Part shown: positions 47,755 through 56,474 of the stretch, piece after piece | Layout: the number at the start of each line of letters is the position of its first letter | Position numbering within the stretch: the stretch's first letter is position 1 | Assembly: GCA_020446775.1 (NCBI GenBank) | Contig: JAGREB010000035.1 | Coordinates: 1 to 57,720 of the forward strand | Length of the DNA: 57,720 nucleotides | Origin: Paracoccaceae bacterium | GTDB taxonomy: Bacteria; Pseudomonadota; Alphaproteobacteria; Rhodospirillales; Rhodospirillaceae | Direction: 5' to 3' | Made by a program: the position numbers and the translations under genes | Notes under the pieces: model-generated | Databases searched by the model: none | What the model was told of the DNA's origin: nothing | Seen by the model: the letters and a program-made list of their open reading frames with translations, nothing else

Positions 47755-48051
47755 ATGCACCGTCATACGGTTCTGTTCAATTTCAAGGACGAAGTTTCAC
47801 CAGCCGACCGTGACCGCATCGTCGAGGCGTTACGCAGCCTCAAATCGATCTCGGTCGTCAAAGATTTGATGTTGCACAAGAACAAGGTGCCGCCGAGCCC
47901 GAAAGCGCCGTTCGAGTGGCTGTTGGTCGCGGATTTCGCCAACGACGACGACCGCCAAATCTACGAGAAGGACGAGCTGCACGTAAAAGTCATTCGGGGC
48001 GACTTCGTGCCCAACGTGAAGAATTACGCCGTCGCCGACGTAAACTATTGA
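47755..48051 (+). CDS. Dabb (stress-responsive alpha/beta barrel) domain protein
   Basis: A 98-aa ORF. MHRHTVLFNFKDEVSPADRDRIVEALRSLK...H..V is typical of the Dabb domain. A GGGAGGGGA Shine-Dalgarno run lies upstream. Confidence 0.8.
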   Translation: MHRHTVLFNFKDEVSPADRDRIVEALRSLKSISVVKDLMLHKNKVPPSPKAPFEWLLVADFANDDDRQIYEKDELHVKVIRGDFVPNVKNYAVADVNY

Positions 48052-48101: not shown

Positions 48102-49175
48102 ATGGTTCCGATTTACACAGCGGCGTGCGTTCAAACCAATGTCTGGCCGGTTTACCCGAAGAAGGGCGGACCGGCCGAACTCGATCACAAAGAGAAGAAT
48201 CTCAGCCGCGCGATCGATCTGATCGATCGCGTCGCCGCGTGGAATCCGTCCAAGATCTACGTTCTGCCCGAGTTCTTCATGACCGGCGCGGGCGGCGTCG
48301 GCAATACGCAGCGCGACCGCGACATCATTTGCGTGCGCTTCCCCGGCCCCGAGATCGACCGCTTGTGCGCGCTGGCCAAGCGCGTCGATGCCTATGTCGC
48401 CGGCATGGTGTGGGAAGTGATGGACGATTGGCCCGACCGCTACTGGAACACGGCCTTTGTCATCAGCCCCGAAGGCAAGGTCGTCCTCAAATACCACAAG
48501 CACTATGACTTCACCGGCAAGACCAAACCGGGCGACGTGATGACCGAATATATCGAGCGGTACGGTGTCGATGCGTTGTGGCCGGTGGTTGATACGCCGT
48601 ATGGCCGCATCGGCTGCCTGGTGTGCTTCGATATCAACTTCCCCGAGAACGCGCGATGTCTGGCGCTCAACGGAGCCGAGATCATTCTGCACCCAACCTC
48701 CGAGGGCCGCGCGCCGTTCCTGATGGAAGACGTCGGCGGCTGGGAAATCGGCAAACGTTCGCGCGCCTACGAAAATCTTTGCTACGTCATCTCGGCCAAT
48801 CAGGGCCATTTCCTCGGCAGCGACTTTCCGACCGACCGCATGCGCGGACGCAGCCAGATCATCGACTACACCGGGCGGGTGGTGAACATCGCCGAAACCA
48901 CCGGTGAATGCATTTTGCAAGCCGACATCCACATCGAGCAGCTGCGCCAGAAACGCGCGCAGGTGCAGATGAACTTTCTCAATGAATTGCAGACTCACGT
49001 CCACGCGGTGCAATACGCCCGCAAGGCGATGTGGCCGAAGGAATTGTGGAAGACCGCGCCGACCGGCGGCGATTTGGGCAATATCAAAGCGGCGCGCGAG
49101 AACCTCGCGCGCCTGCAGAAGGAAGGGCTGTTCGTGCCGCCCTCATCAAGCCTCGACAAGAAAAGTTTCGTGTAA
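48102..49175 (+). CDS. carbon-nitrogen hydrolase (nitrilase superfamily, amidase-like branch), paralog A
   Basis: YVLPEFFMTG (Glu), VVLKYHKHYDF (Lys) and GCLVCFDINFPE (Cys), with a long C-terminal extension as in aliphatic amidases. Confidence 0.8.
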   Translation: MVPIYTAACVQTNVWPVYPKKGGPAELDHKEKNLSRAIDLIDRVAAWNPSKIYVLPEFFMTGAGGVGNTQRDRDIICVRFPGPEIDRLCALAKRVDAYVAGMVWEVMDDWPDRYWNTAFVISPEGKVVLKYHKHYDFTGKTKPGDVMTEYIERYGVDALWPVVDTPYGRIGCLVCFDINFPENARCLALNGAEIILHPTSEGRAPFLMEDVGGWEIGKRSRAYENLCYVISANQGHFLGSDFPTDRMRGRSQIIDYTGRVVNIAETTGECILQADIHIEQLRQKRAQVQMNFLNELQTHVHAVQYARKAMWPKELWKTAPTGGDLGNIKAARENLARLQKEGLFVPPSSSLDKKSFV

Positions 49176-49184
49176 GGAGATGCC

Positions 49185-50255
49185 ATGACGACCGCGAAAC
49201 CGAAGCCGCCGCTGCGCTATTACGCGCTTGCGTGCCAGACCATCATCAAGCCGATCACGGCCGAGGTGGAAACCCCGGAACAAGGCCGCGCGATCATGCG
49301 CGACAACCTCGATGCCGCCCTGCTGTTGGCGAAACGCGGCATCGGCAACGGATTGGGCGACGTCAAGCTGATCACCTTCCCCGAAATGTTCCTGACTTTG
49401 GCGCCGGTCGGCTGGCCGCGCGGCGTGAAGGGCTGGCTCGACGTCGGATGTGTCGAAGTTCCCGGACCCGAACTTGAACCGCTGTTCCAATTCGCCCGCG
49501 ATTACGGCGTGTACATCGGCGCGAACTGTTACGAATACGACCCGAAATGGCCGATGCGCTATTTCAACTGCTCGTTCCTGATCAACACCAAGGGCGAAGT
49601 GGTATTGAAATACCGCAGGCTGCACAGCCACATCTCGCCCAGCCCGCACGATTTCCTCGATCAGTACGTCCAGACGGAAGGCTGGGATGCGCTATTCCCG
49701 GTCGCCGACACGGAACTCGGCCGAATCTCCATGTTCCCCTGCATGGAAATCTCGAAACCCGAAGTGGCGCGGATGTTCGCCATGAAAGGCGCGGAAGTCC
49801 TGCTTCATCCGACCGGCGACTCGCCCGATTTCCCCGGCTGGACCGCATGCAAGCTTGCGCGGGCGTTCGAGAACAATTGCTACGTCGTCTCGACCAATTG
49901 CGGCGGCTGGGTCAGCAAACGCGGCTATCTCGAATCGACCAATGCCGGCGGCACCAAGATCATCGATTACATGGGCAACGTCATCAACGAAGCCAAGCCG
50001 TCGGGTGAAAGCATGAAGGCGCGCGGCCTGATCGACATCGAGCAGCTACGCGCACACCGGCATACCCGCAACTCGTTCAACATGATCGCGCAACTGCGCA
50101 CCGAGCTTTACACCGAATACAAACGCACGATCACGGCGCCCAACCGATTCTCTGATCCGATGAAGGACCAAGAGTCGCTGCGCAAATTGTACGGCGAGAC
50201 CATGGCCAAGCTGACCGAAGAGGGCTTGTTCCCGCCGCCGCAGCTCACGCCGTGA
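49185..50255 (+). CDS. carbon-nitrogen hydrolase-like protein, paralog B (catalytic Lys position apparently Arg)
   Basis: ITFPEMFLT (Glu), VVLKYRRLHSH (aligned to YHK in paralog A and to the YRKxH consensus, and reading YRR here) and SMFPCMEISKPE (Cys). It is colinear with paralog A and starts 9 nt after its stop. Confidence 0.75.
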   Translation: MTTAKPKPPLRYYALACQTIIKPITAEVETPEQGRAIMRDNLDAALLLAKRGIGNGLGDVKLITFPEMFLTLAPVGWPRGVKGWLDVGCVEVPGPELEPLFQFARDYGVYIGANCYEYDPKWPMRYFNCSFLINTKGEVVLKYRRLHSHISPSPHDFLDQYVQTEGWDALFPVADTELGRISMFPCMEISKPEVARMFAMKGAEVLLHPTGDSPDFPGWTACKLARAFENNCYVVSTNCGGWVSKRGYLESTNAGGTKIIDYMGNVINEAKPSGESMKARGLIDIEQLRAHRHTRNSFNMIAQLRTELYTEYKRTITAPNRFSDPMKDQESLRKLYGETMAKLTEEGLFPPPQLTP

Positions 50256-51896: not shown

Positions 51897-52922
51897 ATGG
51901 GCCACACGATCATTCAGCGCATCGCGGCGCTCTCTATGACAGCGATGACGATTCTCGGTCTTGGCGGACCGGGGCCCGTATTCGCAGCGAATGCGATCGC
52001 CGCGGCGCTTTCCTATCCCGGCGATCCGACCGATCAGTATTGGCAAATTTATGCGCGCGACCTTCGGGCCGCGAACGCCGGGATCGATCTGACCCTGTTG
52101 ACCCGGGGTGAAATCGGCAGCGAAGAGCAGATCTTGCCCGCGACTAGGCGCGGGCGCGTTCAACTGGCGGGATTCACCACCAGCGGTCTCGAGGCGCTGA
52201 TCCCGGAGTTCGCGCTGTTTCTTGCGCCTTACCTGTTCGAATCCTTCGACGAAGTCGATTTCGTGCTCGACAACTATCTGGCCGTACCGATGGCCGAACT
52301 GTGCGCCAGCAAGGGTCTTGTCATGTTGACCTGGTACGACGAGGGCTGGCGGAATCTTTTTTCCAAGACGCAGATGAACGGCCCGGGCGATGTGCGCAAT
52401 TACCGGTTCCGGGCGCTGCAAGCCAAGGCGTCGCAGGAATTTCTAGGGGCGCTCGGCGCCGACGTGATACCGATTCCGTTTCCCGAAGTGATTCCCGGCT
52501 TGCAGACCGGATTGATCGACGGCGGCGAGATCGGCGTTTACATGTACCGGGTCAGCGGCGTGCGCGATGTGGCGCCGTATTATACCCTCACCGAGCACGC
52601 CTATTCGACCGGCATCATCTCGGCCAACAAACCCTGGTTCGATAGCCTCACGCCGGCGGAGCAGGAGGCAATTCGCGCTACAGTGCCGAAAGCACCGGTC
52701 GCGCGCCGCTTGATGCGGGACGCCGCCGCAAGCGGCATCGACGCGGTTATCGCAGGCGGAGCGCATGTGCAAAGATTGACGCCGGAGCAACGCGCCGCGT
52801 GGGCCGCAGCCGTCGCGCCGACGCACCGTCAATTAATCGACAACATCGGCGGCGATGCCCAGCGAATTTACGATTTGATCGTCGAGGCGAAGCGCGCGTT
52901 TGCGGCTCAGCCGAATAATTAG
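51897..52922 (+). CDS. TRAP transporter substrate-binding protein (DctP family), orphan
   Basis: A signal peptide followed by ..GEIGSEEQILPATRRGRVQLAGFTTSGLEALIPEFALFLAPYLFESFDEVD.., the DctP pattern. No DctQ or DctM gene is adjacent. Confidence 0.75.
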   Translation: MGHTIIQRIAALSMTAMTILGLGGPGPVFAANAIAAALSYPGDPTDQYWQIYARDLRAANAGIDLTLLTRGEIGSEEQILPATRRGRVQLAGFTTSGLEALIPEFALFLAPYLFESFDEVDFVLDNYLAVPMAELCASKGLVMLTWYDEGWRNLFSKTQMNGPGDVRNYRFRALQAKASQEFLGALGADVIPIPFPEVIPGLQTGLIDGGEIGVYMYRVSGVRDVAPYYTLTEHAYSTGIISANKPWFDSLTPAEQEAIRATVPKAPVARRLMRDAAASGIDAVIAGGAHVQRLTPEQRAAWAAAVAPTHRQLIDNIGGDAQRIYDLIVEAKRAFAAQPNN

Positions 52923-54007
52923 GCGAACCTGACCGCGTAAACCGGCGGCAACGTATTCGAAACCGATGCCCAGTTCTCGCCCTGGTCGTCGGTCGCCCAC
53001 AAACCGCCAGTGGTCGAACCCATCGCCAACCGCTCGCCGGTTCGATCGATGGCCAAACCATGGCGATAGATCAGGTCGAAAGCGTTTTCCTGCGGCAGAC
53101 CGTTGCGCAAGGTCGTGAACGTCTTGCCGCCGTCACGCGTGCGATTAACCACCACCTTGCCGTCGACGGGAGCACGAATCTGGTCCGAATGGGCCGGGAC
53201 ATACCACGCGGTCTCGGGATCCTTGGGGTGAACGGCAACGGCGAACCCAAAATTCGACACCGGGACGGGTTTGATTTCCTGCCAGCTTTTCGAGGCATCC
53301 GTCGAACGGAACATCGCGTTGTGATGCTGACACCAGTAAATGTCGGGATTGGTCGGCGATTGAACGATCATATGGACGTCCTGCACGGCCGGATCGTCCT
53401 TGGCGCCCGGCGGCACATAGGCCGCCCACATGCCATGCGAGGCGACACGCCAGGTCTTCCCGCCGTCCTCGGTCAGATTGACGCCACCGCACGAGACACC
53501 AACCGCGATGCGATTCTTGTCGCGCGGATCGACGCAAACCGAATGCAGCGCCGGATCGACGGTTCCGCCGCCGACCCATTTTTTGCGTTCTTCGAAATCC
53601 CACAGCCCGCGATTGAGCGTCCAGGTCGCGCCGAGATCGTCGGAATAAAATAGCCCGCCCGGCGCGGTCCCGCACCACACGGCGTTGGGGTTTTGCGGAT
53701 CGGCCCACTCAAGCGCCCAGATGCCTTTGTTGGCCGGCGCCGACTCATCGGACTCGCCGCCGTCGGCCTTGGGATAAGCGGGCGGGTCGAGTTCGGTCCA
53801 CGTTTTGCCGCCGTCCTGCGTGCGATGAAGCTTTACGCCAAAGTGACCGAGATTGAGCGCGGCCAATATCGTTTGCCCGGATTTATCGGACAGCGCGAGC
53901 GACACCGGCGAACCGTAGAAATGCGTCGCATCGTGTACCCAGCCTTTTTCGTTGCGCGTGTAGGTCATCAATCCCTTGCGCGTCGAGACCAGCATGAGAT
54001 CGGACAT
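52919..54007 (-). CDS. BNR/Asp-box repeat beta-propeller protein (sialidase/Ycf48-like fold), no signal peptide
   Basis: Six Asp-boxes: TQDGGKTW, SDDLGATW, TEDGGKTW, STDASKSW, TRDGGKTF and TDDQGENW. ATG at 54007 follows a GAAGGAAG Shine-Dalgarno run that begins immediately after the stop of the upstream MoaD-like gene. The ORF track start is 54034. Confidence 0.8.
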   Translation of the reverse strand: MSDLMLVSTRKGLMTYTRNEKGWVHDATHFYGSPVSLALSDKSGQTILAALNLGHFGVKLHRTQDGGKTWTELDPPAYPKADGGESDESAPANKGIWALEWADPQNPNAVWCGTAPGGLFYSDDLGATWTLNRGLWDFEERKKWVGGGTVDPALHSVCVDPRDKNRIAVGVSCGGVNLTEDGGKTWRVASHGMWAAYVPPGAKDDPAVQDVHMIVQSPTNPDIYWCQHHNAMFRSTDASKSWQEIKPVPVSNFGFAVAVHPKDPETAWYVPAHSDQIRAPVDGKVVVNRTRDGGKTFTTLRNGLPQENAFDLIYRHGLAIDRTGERLAMGSTTGGLWATDDQGENWASVSNTLPPVYAVRFA

Positions 54008-54020
54008 TGCGGCTTCCTTC

Positions 54021-54296
54021 TTAATTGTCACCACCCGAAAGCGCTTGGAGAATATACAACTCGCTGTCAGGCTTCACCGGCTGCGAGAGAATATCCGAAC
54101 CGCGCAAATGTTCGCCATCCAGAAACACGGCGATGTGAATGCGCAAACGATCTTGGTCGTCGAGTATGTAAGTTTTAAGACCGGGCGTCTTGGCGAATAC
54201 CGACGCCAGCACTTCGCGAATCGTCGATCCGGCCCCATCGATGGGGTTTTCAGGCGCGACGCGCTGCAGATGGGCGGTGAAATGAACCTGGACCAT
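54021..54296 (-). CDS. MoaD/ThiS-family ubiquitin-like beta-grasp protein with a GG-DN C-terminus
   Basis: A 91-aa product from ATG at 54296, with an AGGAA Shine-Dalgarno run 7-8 nt upstream (ORF track start 54344). MVQVHFTAHLQRV...TIREVLASV...VFLDGEHLRGSDILSQPVKPDSELYILQALSGGDN fits the MoaD pattern (..V.VNGE......L.DGDE..I.PP.SGG) but carries two residues after the Gly-Gly. Confidence 0.65.
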   Translation of the reverse strand: MVQVHFTAHLQRVAPENPIDGAGSTIREVLASVFAKTPGLKTYILDDQDRLRIHIAVFLDGEHLRGSDILSQPVKPDSELYILQALSGGDN

Positions 54297-54354
54297 ACTC
54301 GTGTTCCTAACTCCCAGGATGCGCCATGGACGACAGGGAGTCACCGGTTTTAGG

Positions 54355-55422
54355 ATGCAATCGAAATTCGTTTACTCCACTTCGCAATCCGCCGCACCAA
54401 TGATCAAGTCAGAATTGCTCGCCGCATTGCGTGGAGGCCTCGCCGATCAAACGGTCATGACGGCGGCAGAAAACATAGTGACGGGGGGATTGGAGCGCAC
54501 GGCCGAGGATATCGAACTCGCATTGCTGTTCGCGCAAGCCGCCTGGATCGCCGACCAGCGCAATCCCATAGCCACGCGCGCACGCGATGCCGCGCAAGCC
54601 GTGATCGCGGCCGTGCCCACTTTGGCCGATGGGTACCGCTGGCTCGGTTTCGCGCATTTGAGCCGTGGCGAGTACCGCGAAGCCTTCACGGCCCTTTCGG
54701 CAGTGAAAGCCGTACCCGGCGAAGCCAACTTCGACAATTTCCGGGCGCTGGCCCAAAACCTGATGCTCGGGAGGACCGAGGCAGGCTTTAAGTGGAACGA
54801 TACGGACTATGTTTTTCCGCTCAGCTGCCACAATGCCGCAGCGATCGAAGCCGGTGCGTTCCATAGCGTCGGGGTGTTGACGGAAACGGACGAGTTGCAA
54901 GCCTTGGCGCGTTGCGCGGCGGGCCGGCCGATCGAGCAAATCGCCGAAATCGGCGTCTTGATCGGCAATCATACCGCCTTCATGCTGCACACGTTTCATC
55001 CCGATCACCTCGTACTGATCGATGCCGATCCCGCCAACATTCCGTTGATCGAAAAAACCGTCCGCATGAATACGCCCGCCAACACCGCGCCGATTGTCGA
55101 AACCGTTACCGCGTTCGTGGGCCGCGGCGGCGCCGACGTTTCCTTTGCCGGAGAAATGGTGCCGCATCGCCGCTTATGCGATCTGGTGACCGGACCGGTC
55201 GATCTGATCAAGATCGATGTCGACGGGGCGGAAATCGAGCTTCTCAACGCGGGCGGCGACCCCATCGAGCGCCACCGTCCCCTGACATTGATCGAAACGA
55301 CGCCGTCCAGCGATGCCCCGGTCGTCGAGTGGTTCACATCGCGCGGGTTTTCATGCGCGGCGATGTTCGACCACGGATCGTACCGCAACCGCATCATGGT
55401 GGCGGGGGACGCCGCGCCGTGA
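54355..55422 (+). CDS. FkbM-family methyltransferase with an N-terminal helical (TPR-like) region
   Basis: The C-terminal half EIGVLIGNHTAFML...LIDADPANIPLIEKTVRMN...VDLIKIDVDGAEIELL is the FkbM (Methyltransf_21) pattern. The start is uncertain (54301, 54355 or 54400). Confidence 0.7.
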   Translation: MQSKFVYSTSQSAAPMIKSELLAALRGGLADQTVMTAAENIVTGGLERTAEDIELALLFAQAAWIADQRNPIATRARDAAQAVIAAVPTLADGYRWLGFAHLSRGEYREAFTALSAVKAVPGEANFDNFRALAQNLMLGRTEAGFKWNDTDYVFPLSCHNAAAIEAGAFHSVGVLTETDELQALARCAAGRPIEQIAEIGVLIGNHTAFMLHTFHPDHLVLIDADPANIPLIEKTVRMNTPANTAPIVETVTAFVGRGGADVSFAGEMVPHRRLCDLVTGPVDLIKIDVDGAEIELLNAGGDPIERHRPLTLIETTPSSDAPVVEWFTSRGFSCAAMFDHGSYRNRIMVAGDAAP

Positions 55423-56474
55423 CGGAGCCAACACAAGTTTTCAGCCCGCAAGTCTTGAAGGCGGCCTTTGCCGACGGCGTCTACGTGTTCTGCCCGGAGA
55501 AAATCCCAACGCACAATGCCGGGTGCCTGATCGAAGGCCTGTTGGCGATGGGCATACCGGTTAAAACCAACGCCGAACGCATCACTTCGCGCGAAGCCTC
55601 GATGCCGCTGAAGGGCATCGATCTGGCATCGCTGCGCGCGCCGATGTTCGACGGTATGGCGGCCTACCTGCTCGATATCACGCACACCAATCATTACGCG
55701 GAGGTCTCGGGTCTGCGCGGCAAGCGCGTGGCTTATCTGACCACGGCCGACACCAGCTTGTTCTGCAAAGTGCCCGACGACGTCCTGCTGTTTTCGACCC
55801 ATGAAAGCGCGCTCGCGCGCATGAGCGGGCGGCGGGCGGCAATCGGATTTGGCTTGAGCGCGGCGGCGATTGCCGCAACCGCCGTGGCCAAACCGTTCGC
55901 CGAGCGCAAACGCGCCGCGTTGCGCAATTTTCGCGCCACCCTCAGCCAAAGCGTGCGTGCGATGCTCGACCTCGCGTTCGTCCCGGCACTGGAAGCGCGC
56001 ATGACCATCGACCGTACGGATTATGACGCGGCGGCTTATGTTCAAGCGTTGTGCGAAAGCCAAGTATGTTTAGCCTACGGCGGCGATTTCTTCGCCGCGT
56101 TGCAGACCAATCTCTATCTCGCGAAATCCCAGCCGCAGGTCTACGCGAATCACAAATTCCAGGATTTGAAAGCACCGGCGGTCGTGATGCGCTGGGACAG
56201 CTGGCGTTTTTGGGAAAGCCTCGCCGCCGGTTGTCTGACGGTGCAACTCGATTTCGATAAATACGGGTTCAAATTGCCGGTCATGCCCGAGCCCTGGGTG
56301 CACTACGTGCCGCTCGACCTCGGCAATCTCAACGGTTCCCTAGAACAGATGTTCGACCGCGAAAAAGAATGGCCGGAGATCGCCGCGCGGGGGCGGACTT
56401 GGGCGCTTGACCACTATGCGCCGGCCCCCACGGCTGCCTACATGCTGGGCGAAATTCTCGCGGCTTATCCCTGA
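55419..56474 (+). CDS. hypothetical protein with an exostosin/CgeB-like glycosyltransferase C-terminal motif
   Basis: GTG at 55419 overlaps the FkbM stop (GTGA). The ORF track start at 54912 is read-through. YVQALCESQVCLAYGGD...WRFWESLAAGCLTVQLD...WVHYVPLD resembles the GT-B C-terminal block Y..l..S.fCL.p.G....R..Eal..GC.PV. The functional call is weak. Confidence 0.45.
   Translation: MTEPTQVFSPQVLKAAFADGVYVFCPEKIPTHNAGCLIEGLLAMGIPVKTNAERITSREASMPLKGIDLASLRAPMFDGMAAYLLDITHTNHYAEVSGLRGKRVAYLTTADTSLFCKVPDDVLLFSTHESALARMSGRRAAIGFGLSAAAIAATAVAKPFAERKRAALRNFRATLSQSVRAMLDLAFVPALEARMTIDRTDYDAAAYVQALCESQVCLAYGGDFFAALQTNLYLAKSQPQVYANHKFQDLKAPAVVMRWDSWRFWESLAAGCLTVQLDFDKYGFKLPVMPEPWVHYVPLDLGNLNGSLEQMFDREKEWPEIAARGRTWALDHYAPAPTAAYMLGEILAAYP

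Follow-up and report, generated by a model that had tools for sequence, protein, structure and literature searches.

We describe here a self-contained two-gene module of a Paracoccaceae bacterium, in which the gene for a Gly-Gly-terminated beta-grasp carrier of the ThiS/MoaD family is followed directly by the gene for a beta-propeller of the family of PDB entry 3b7f. Both genes lie on the reverse strand of the window, the stretch of 57,720 nucleotides from contig JAGREB010000035.1 (GenBank assembly GCA_020446775.1) that was analyzed as a whole. The pair occurs in hundreds of bacterial species, and, judging from its gene order, the carrier and the propeller almost certainly work together.

Gene order and conservation

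The upstream gene (54024..54296, reverse strand) encodes a CysO/SAMP1-like beta-grasp protein of 91 amino acids (aa) with the C terminus YILQALSGGDN. The codons of Gly88-Gly89 occupy 54035..54030 and those of the extra residues Asp90-Asn91 occupy 54029..54024, which places the TAA stop (54021..54023) two codons past Gly-Gly. An intergenic spacer of 13 nt follows (54008..54020), consisting of the Shine-Dalgarno-like sequence GAAGGAAG (54020..54013) and CCGCA, and leads to the ATG (54007..54005) of the propeller gene (52919..54007, reverse strand; 362 aa plus stop). A sequence-only reading of the window had described this succession of stop, Shine-Dalgarno run, and start codon as translational coupling. 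Each of its elements is present in the sequence, and the two genes are confirmed as a translationally coupled pair. No Rfam match at E <= 1 was found around the pair (52500-55000 searched), and a scan for promoters and terminators at the pair gave no signal exceeding shuffles. The sequencing runs listed include no RNA run that contains the sequence.

Relatives of the small protein are encoded in at least 583 stretches of DNA in a scan that took one genome per species, and the best 80 loci were analyzed. This survey of the pair across genomes, which the sequence-only reading had called for, found it conserved. In 80/80 loci, the next gene downstream, on the same strand, is that of the propeller; the gap from stop to start is at most 35 nt in 62 of them and at most 200 nt in 79. 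By their record labels, the loci belong to Alphaproteobacteria, Betaproteobacteria, Acidobacteriota, Planctomycetota, Gemmatimonadota, Chloroflexota, and Verrucomicrobiota. Clustering of the flanking open reading frames (ORFs) of the loci revealed no third gene conserved across lineages, and the recurrent neighbors alaS, recA, and icd represent synteny within Xanthobacteraceae-like genomes.

In many relatives, the Gly-Gly codons contain GGAGG and stand 5 to 8 nt ahead of the propeller ATG. The codons of the carrier C terminus seem to double there as the Shine-Dalgarno sequence of the propeller, a dual role that may constrain both the end of the carrier and the ribosome-binding site. The 3′ ends of ThiS-like genes among loci L007 to L086 (for example, L043, L046, L048, and L057) very often display GGAGG, then TGA, and then ATG 2 to 5 nt on. 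A few copies of the pair look damaged or misassembled: the small gene has an in-frame stop in L009 and has lost its stop in L028 and L032. The propeller is split between frames in 5 of the 80 loci (L031, L036, L039, L054, and L075) and in L107 (genome G122), probably owing to frameshifts or assembly errors.

The association extends to paralogues. In a sample of 301 genomes from the same class, 50 (including the window's genome and the unpublished genome G240) contain a propeller match at E <= 1e-30; these comprise 21 genomes at 490 to 588 bits, which hold orthologues, 23 at 231 to 286 bits, and a few lower. Gene order was determined at 16 of the 52 listed propeller places. The ThiS-like gene is upstream of the propeller at three high-tier control loci, while at 10 of the 11 loci scoring 182 to 286 bits the propeller gene is followed directly by a ThiS-family gene, each ending in SGG; the remaining one, L095, has none. 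The other neighbors of these second-tier loci are mutually unrelated. L098 and L099, the most distant two (124 to 134 bits), likewise lack a ThiS-like neighbor. The opposite order in the paralogue tier indicates that the association predates the split between the subfamilies and outlasted both the duplication and the rearrangement. No fusion of the small protein with the propeller was found in a search for longer forms of the small protein, which is weak evidence, and, of at least 7231 propeller relatives, the 120 best have lengths of 303 to 382 aa, with no ThiS domain listed.

The carrier and the propeller

The small protein is a member of the ThiS/MoaD superfamily by profile and fold. The proposal of a MoaD/ThiS-like protein of 91 aa ending in GG-DN, made from the sequence alone, thus stands on the ORF, the Pfam score, and the predicted structure, and the profile searches suggested along with it did detect the beta-grasp family. 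The Pfam ThiS profile (PF02597) is covered in full by residues 4 to 89, which score 28.0 bits (cut-off, 22.5). The AlphaFold2 (AF2) model has a beta-grasp fold with a predicted local distance difference test score (pLDDT) of 88.5 and a disordered tail (residues 88 to 91). Its nearest matches in Foldseek are SAMP1, CysO (complexed with BexX or CysM), and a Thermus MoaD-related protein, at template modeling (TM) scores of 0.77 to 0.85; the same proteins are the closest solved structures by sequence, and all are GG-terminated carriers or modifiers. Among NCBIfam models, SAMP1 (NF041918) matches best at 45.2 bits, and TIGR01687 (moaD_arch) gives 15.2 against a cut-off of 49.5. The terminal QALSGG is invariant in the alignment of 35 database homologues, and R52, H54, and S87-G88-G89 are invariant in both subfamilies.

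The genome assembly of the organism comprises 556 contigs and is 67% complete; the window's contig is referred to as C308. In a profile search of the whole assembly, ThiF matches were confined to C45 (a fragment), Prok-JAB to C327, and MoaE to C550, and ThiG matches occurred on C56, on C103, and, more weakly, at four places elsewhere in the assembly. None of E1, JAMM, MoaE, or ThiG matched on C308, in agreement with the earlier remark that the window offers no such partner. A canonical moaD-moaE pair lies on C550 and a thiS-thiG pair on C103, so the protein studied here is an additional, third carrier. MoaD proper was rejected as an identification because the single MoaE match of the genome follows a different ThiS-family gene, and ThiS proper was rejected because ThiG accompanies the thiS gene on C103 and has no match on C308. 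Membership in the SAMP1 equivalog family was rejected on its score, which falls under the model cut-off of 60.

The residues Asp-Asn after Gly-Gly had been taken as a hallmark of the system that implies proteolytic maturation. This did not hold up across the family. The stop codon follows Gly-Gly exactly in 75/80 of the best genomic loci and in 32/35 database homologues, which marks a canonical family of carriers with a free Gly-Gly end. Among the database homologues, the exceptions are the window protein (DN), P0028 (DA), and P0012 (N); among the 80 loci, L014 ends in NTA and L059 in C after Gly-Gly, L009 has the in-frame stop, and L028 and L032 run past Gly-Gly. Tails after Gly-Gly (DN, DA, N, NTA, and C) are therefore rare, 1 to 3 residues long, and mutually different. 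A contig from another study's sequencing run (X3; depth, 3.5) spans 53998-54263, including GG-DN-stop, with 0 differences; although this is one single low-depth contig, its identity makes a sequencing or assembly error at the tail unlikely and reproduces the position of the stop codon. By comparison with its relatives, the DN tail is a lineage-specific peculiarity that is atypical of the family. The only candidate for trimming it is a stand-alone JAMM/Prok-JAB protein of 145 aa with the motif HSHPNG, encoded on C327 (L003, 961-1398, forward strand). Its gene sits between pseudouridine-synthase-like and aminotransferase-like genes, with no ThiS-like neighbor on this short contig.

The 362-aa protein contains six Asp-boxes, read from the translation at residues 63-70, 122-129, 179-186, 235-242, 290-297, and 339-346. 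It has no signal peptide, since its N terminus is charged and residues 4-9 form a propeller strand in the AF2 model (pLDDT, 92.5; predicted TM score, 0.90). Both features had been noted in the sequence-only reading and agree with the translation, Pfam, and the model; the protein is accordingly named here as a predicted cytoplasmic propeller. Pfam matches are Sortilin-Vps10 (47.3 bits, the strongest) and BNR (29.7 bits), both exceeding their cut-offs, and the sialidase-type BNR_2 (PF13088) gives no match at E <= 1. The closest structure is 3b7f, by profile (E 3e-80 over residues 5-355; 273 bits), by phmmer (E 2.8e-51), and by Foldseek (E 2e-31; TM score, 0.88; 31% identity). Halves of GH74 xyloglucanases, dispase autolysis-inducing protein, and Ycf48 come next in Foldseek and are far less similar. 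Profile and model together place the protein in the 3b7f/YP_299179.1 family, as a predicted single seven-bladed propeller.

Other identities were rejected. An exo-alpha-sialidase of family GH33, for which a six-bladed and usually secreted propeller would be expected, is inconsistent with the missing PF13088 match, the seven-bladed best match 3b7f, and the lack of a signal peptide. A GH74 xyloglucanase has two tandem propellers in about 700 aa versus the single one of 362 aa here, and the match has a TM score of 0.6 by the query and about 0.3 by the target, with 16% identity. F510_1955 glycosylhydrolase (NF045728) scores 75.5 against a cut-off of 175, and Ycf48 scores 14.8 against 27 (PF14870) and 17.3 against 326 (NF010237).

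The alignment of 32 propeller sequences has 62 invariant columns. Once seven paralogues are added, the polar residues that stay invariant are T9, K11, H155, S172, H212, H229, R278, and R315. From the strand order of the model and the positions of the Asp-boxes, the conserved polar residues are predicted to lie in loops between strands 2 and 3 or between blades, opposite the Asp-boxes. The structural-genomics protein 3b7f (Reut_B4987, YP_299179.1) of Ralstonia eutropha JMP134 retains all of the residues that are invariant across the subfamilies, plus H55, R141, and D210. It shares the family and the seven blades with the window propeller but differs in sequence (31% identity) and belongs by score to the second tier, in which the ThiS-like gene is downstream in 10/11 loci. 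Those passages of PMC2716378 that are devoted to 3b7f describe a seven-bladed propeller that lacks the usual Velcro closure and has an open tunnel measuring 9 by 11 Å; they regard it as functionally uncharacterized and as the founder of its own family. They assign the Asp-boxes to the structural bottom face, regard the opposite, top face as functional, and recommend it as the place to seek function. This is the only paper found that discusses 3b7f, and its accessible part makes no mention of a ThiS/MoaD neighbor.

A possible mechanism and its alternatives

Known carrier-partner pairs have each revealed a distinct sulfur insertion, into thiamin, molybdopterin, cysteine, thiosugars, or thio-tRNA. 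As in the module described here, a GG-ending beta-grasp gene stands beside, and is coupled to, the gene of one partner enzyme in CysO-CysM (3dwg), CysO-BexX (4n6e), MoaD-MoaE (1fm0), ThiS-ThiG, and TtuB-TtuA, and both in sequence and in fold the small protein has CysO among its closest matches. In contrast to these pairs, the partner here is a seven-bladed Asp-box propeller, no E1, pyridoxal phosphate-dependent enzyme, MoaE, or ThiG is nearby, and the Gly-Gly of the window protein is followed by DN. The BexX 2-thiosugar system provides a precedent for an unlinked housekeeping E1.

We lean slightly toward the view, based on the conservation of the Gly-Gly end, that chemistry at the C-terminal carboxylate of the carrier is the point of the system. 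An unlinked housekeeping E1 of the ThiF/MoeB type would adenylate the C-terminal glycine, with thiocarboxylation as the next step. The carrier and the propeller, which we infer from their gene order to bind each other, would meet as the flexible GG tail docks in a conserved pocket or tunnel of the propeller, on the top face that presents the invariant His, Arg, Lys, Ser, and Asp residues. The propeller would be the acceptor enzyme and hand the sulfur (or an activated acyl group) to a substrate. We give somewhat less than an even chance to sulfur transfer in which the propeller serves as the acceptor enzyme. The complete scheme is put forward tentatively: a new class of ubiquitin-like-carrier-dependent enzyme, in which an Asp-box propeller would take a thiocarboxylated or adenylated GG tail into a His/Arg-lined tunnel and build a sulfur-containing (or acylated) metabolite or cofactor. 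In this organism, the DN tail would be either trimmed or tolerated.

Other Asp-box propellers are of interest for the docking step. The propeller of sortilin (Vps10) binds a peptide C terminus, and the fold matches of the window propeller include Ycf48 in complex with a D1 peptide; by analogy, the two may serve as precedent for a propeller that receives the end of a peptide. Unlike the window propeller, sortilin is ten-bladed, and both proteins are extracytoplasmic or thylakoid-lumenal.

Several observations weigh against a carrier-dependent acceptor enzyme. An E1 gene is linked to the pair in 0/96 loci (tblastn with a MoeB; E <= 1e-6; up to 8 kb), and the loci examined likewise lack a linked gene for a rhodanese, a cysteine desulfurase, or a JAMM protein; this is what came of the proposed survey for linked E1 or JAMM genes. 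The Gly-Gly of the window protein itself has no free end. In favor of activation in trans, a ThiF-family match is present in 49 of the 50 propeller-positive genomes, including G240, and the exception (G223) is 71% complete; the test was one that activation in trans could have failed, and it lends that activation weak support. The co-occurrence counts for little because a ThiF-family match is found in 250/301 of the sampled genomes anyway, and relatives among these are not independent. The position of Cys173 in the propeller is Cys in 65/80 loci, Thr in 7, and Ser, Val, or Ala in 3 (it was not located in 5), and it is Ser in 3b7f, so this mostly conserved cysteine is dispensable and a persulfide relay through it is not general. 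No TGA was found at this position in the 80 loci, and the single TGA in the propeller of G122 sits in a frameshifted stretch away from it. Finally, we know of no beta-propeller that acts as acceptor for a ThiS/MoaD carrier, and literature searches likewise returned none.

The beta-grasp protein could instead be a non-covalent subunit, regulator, or plug, its tail or surface binding the tunnel or top face without adenylation or sulfur chemistry and the propeller alone carrying the catalytic or binding function. We regard this as unlikely, but with evidence to its credit. No E1 or sulfur-mobilizing gene is ever linked to the pair, Sortilin-Vps10 is the strongest Pfam match of the propeller, tails after Gly-Gly are tolerated in a few lineages, and the tunnel of 3b7f is open according to those passages of PMC2716378. 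Distant propeller paralogues (L095, L098, L099, and a Streptomyces plasmid locus) have no ThiS-like neighbor, which indicates that the propeller fold can function alone. A docking surface alone, however, needs no chain that ends exactly at Gly-Gly. The stop exactly after Gly-Gly in 75/80 loci, together with SGG invariant across two subfamilies, is a signature of carboxylate chemistry, and the nearest relatives of the small protein are all carriers activated at the C terminus. Because SAMP1 is both the top NCBIfam match (45.2 bits) and the closest fold, and a stand-alone JAMM/Prok-JAB protein is encoded on C327, tagging of the SAMP/TtuB type was also considered: an unlinked E1 would conjugate the small protein through its Gly-Gly to lysines of targets, with the propeller as receptor, substrate adaptor, or main target. 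The small protein resembles SAMP1 and the archaeal modifiers in being a GG-terminated beta-grasp protein of about 90 aa, but it is bacterial, has no UbaA-type E1 or JAMM gene linked to it, and is locked to a propeller gene. The SAMP1 score stays below its cut-off of 60, none of the loci examined links the pair to an E2-, ligase-, or JAMM-type gene, and a strict 1:1 operon with one enzyme-like partner is more like the carrier-synthase pairs, all of which makes tagging improbable.

It is more doubtful still that the small protein is a processed precursor, whose residues after Gly-Gly are removed by a protease before activation as in QbsE/QbsD or HcyS/HcyD. The GG-DN end is reproduced in the contig of the other study, a few relatives carry tails (DA, N, NTA, and C), and the genome has the unlinked Prok-JAB protein; but the tail is absent from 75/80 loci and 32/35 homologues, the existing tails differ from one another, and no protease is linked, so that processing would at most compensate locally for a displaced stop codon and would not be the design of the system. 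The names "exo-alpha-sialidase" and "sialidase," given to orthologues by the Prokaryotic Genome Annotation Pipeline (PGAP), and the GH74 xyloglucanases that follow 3b7f among structural matches could be read to mean that the propeller really does act as a glycoside hydrolase or sialidase, with its adjacency to a MoaD/ThiS gene meaningless. We give this very little credence: PF13088 does not match at E <= 1, the protein is seven-bladed and lacks a signal peptide, GH74 enzymes consist of two propellers in about 700 aa (TM score, 0.6; 16% identity), F510_1955 remains at 75.5 against 175, and adjacency in 80/80 loci with an inverted order in paralogues is not chance. The sialidase label of the propeller is unfounded.

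Neighboring genes, occurrence, and significance

Other genes of the window encode a DctP-type solute-binding protein, a glutathione S-transferase, a Sel1-repeat protein, two carbon-nitrogen (CN) hydrolases, an FkbM-like methyltransferase, and a thiamine diphosphate-dependent enzyme. They show no functional link to the pair and are kept with it only in close relatives. The two CN-hydrolases (nitrilase superfamily) are adjacent paralogues of 357 and 356 aa (48102-49175 and 49185-50255, forward strand), and a small Dabb (stress-responsive A/B barrel) gene lies ahead of them (47755-48051). The FkbM-type methyltransferase-like ORF (54301-55422) is ahead of an ORF of about 360 aa without a Pfam match (55380-56474, forward strand). 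Relatives of the latter stand divergently upstream of the ThiS-like gene in 6/80 loci (for example, L009, 6814-7863).

The propeller family comprises at least 7231 clusters at 90% identity (E <= 1e-20; the 8000 best candidates were scored), which are named "hypothetical," "exo-alpha-sialidase," or "photosystem II stability/assembly factor-like" in their sources. Searches of plasmid and chromid records with tblastn found orthologues of about 50 to 54% identity in Ralstonia solanacearum, Cupriavidus metallidurans CH34, Burkholderia species, and a Pseudomonas aeruginosa record. Where orthologues of the pair are annotated, they bear the names "MoaD/ThiS family protein" and "exo-alpha-sialidase." In the P. 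aeruginosa record (L105; NZ_CP133752.1, 1-19104), the so-called plasmid region has PmpM, rhtA, and a sigma factor of core-chromosomal appearance around the pair, and the sequence may represent a piece of the chromosome or else a large integrative element.

No published description or function of the pair was found in the literature searched, with subscription journals outside its coverage, nor was any sulfur-carrier or conjugation pathway to which it could be assigned, which bears out what the sequence-only reading had stated. In the accessible text of two surveys of beta-grasp proteins (PMC1779556 and PMC1949818), no propeller, BNR, or sialidase is tied to ThiS/MoaD: the former text contains none of these three words, and the sole "propeller" in the latter is an abbreviation in a figure legend.

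The partner fold of the pair is not known to have been linked before to carriers of the ThiS/MoaD type. Ubiquitin has its prokaryotic roots in such carriers. For a paralogue (3b7f), a crystal structure has been out since 2007, and the pair is present in well-studied bacteria. The DN tail of the window protein is a natural test of the need for a free Gly-Gly. Working out the pair would correct a large "sialidase" misannotation and could uncover a new sulfur-transfer or tagging reaction. If the tentative reading as a new carrier-dependent enzyme class is true, that class would be widespread among bacteria that live in soil or water or in association with plants or hosts, with Pseudomonas aeruginosa, Ralstonia, Cupriavidus, and Burkholderia among them.

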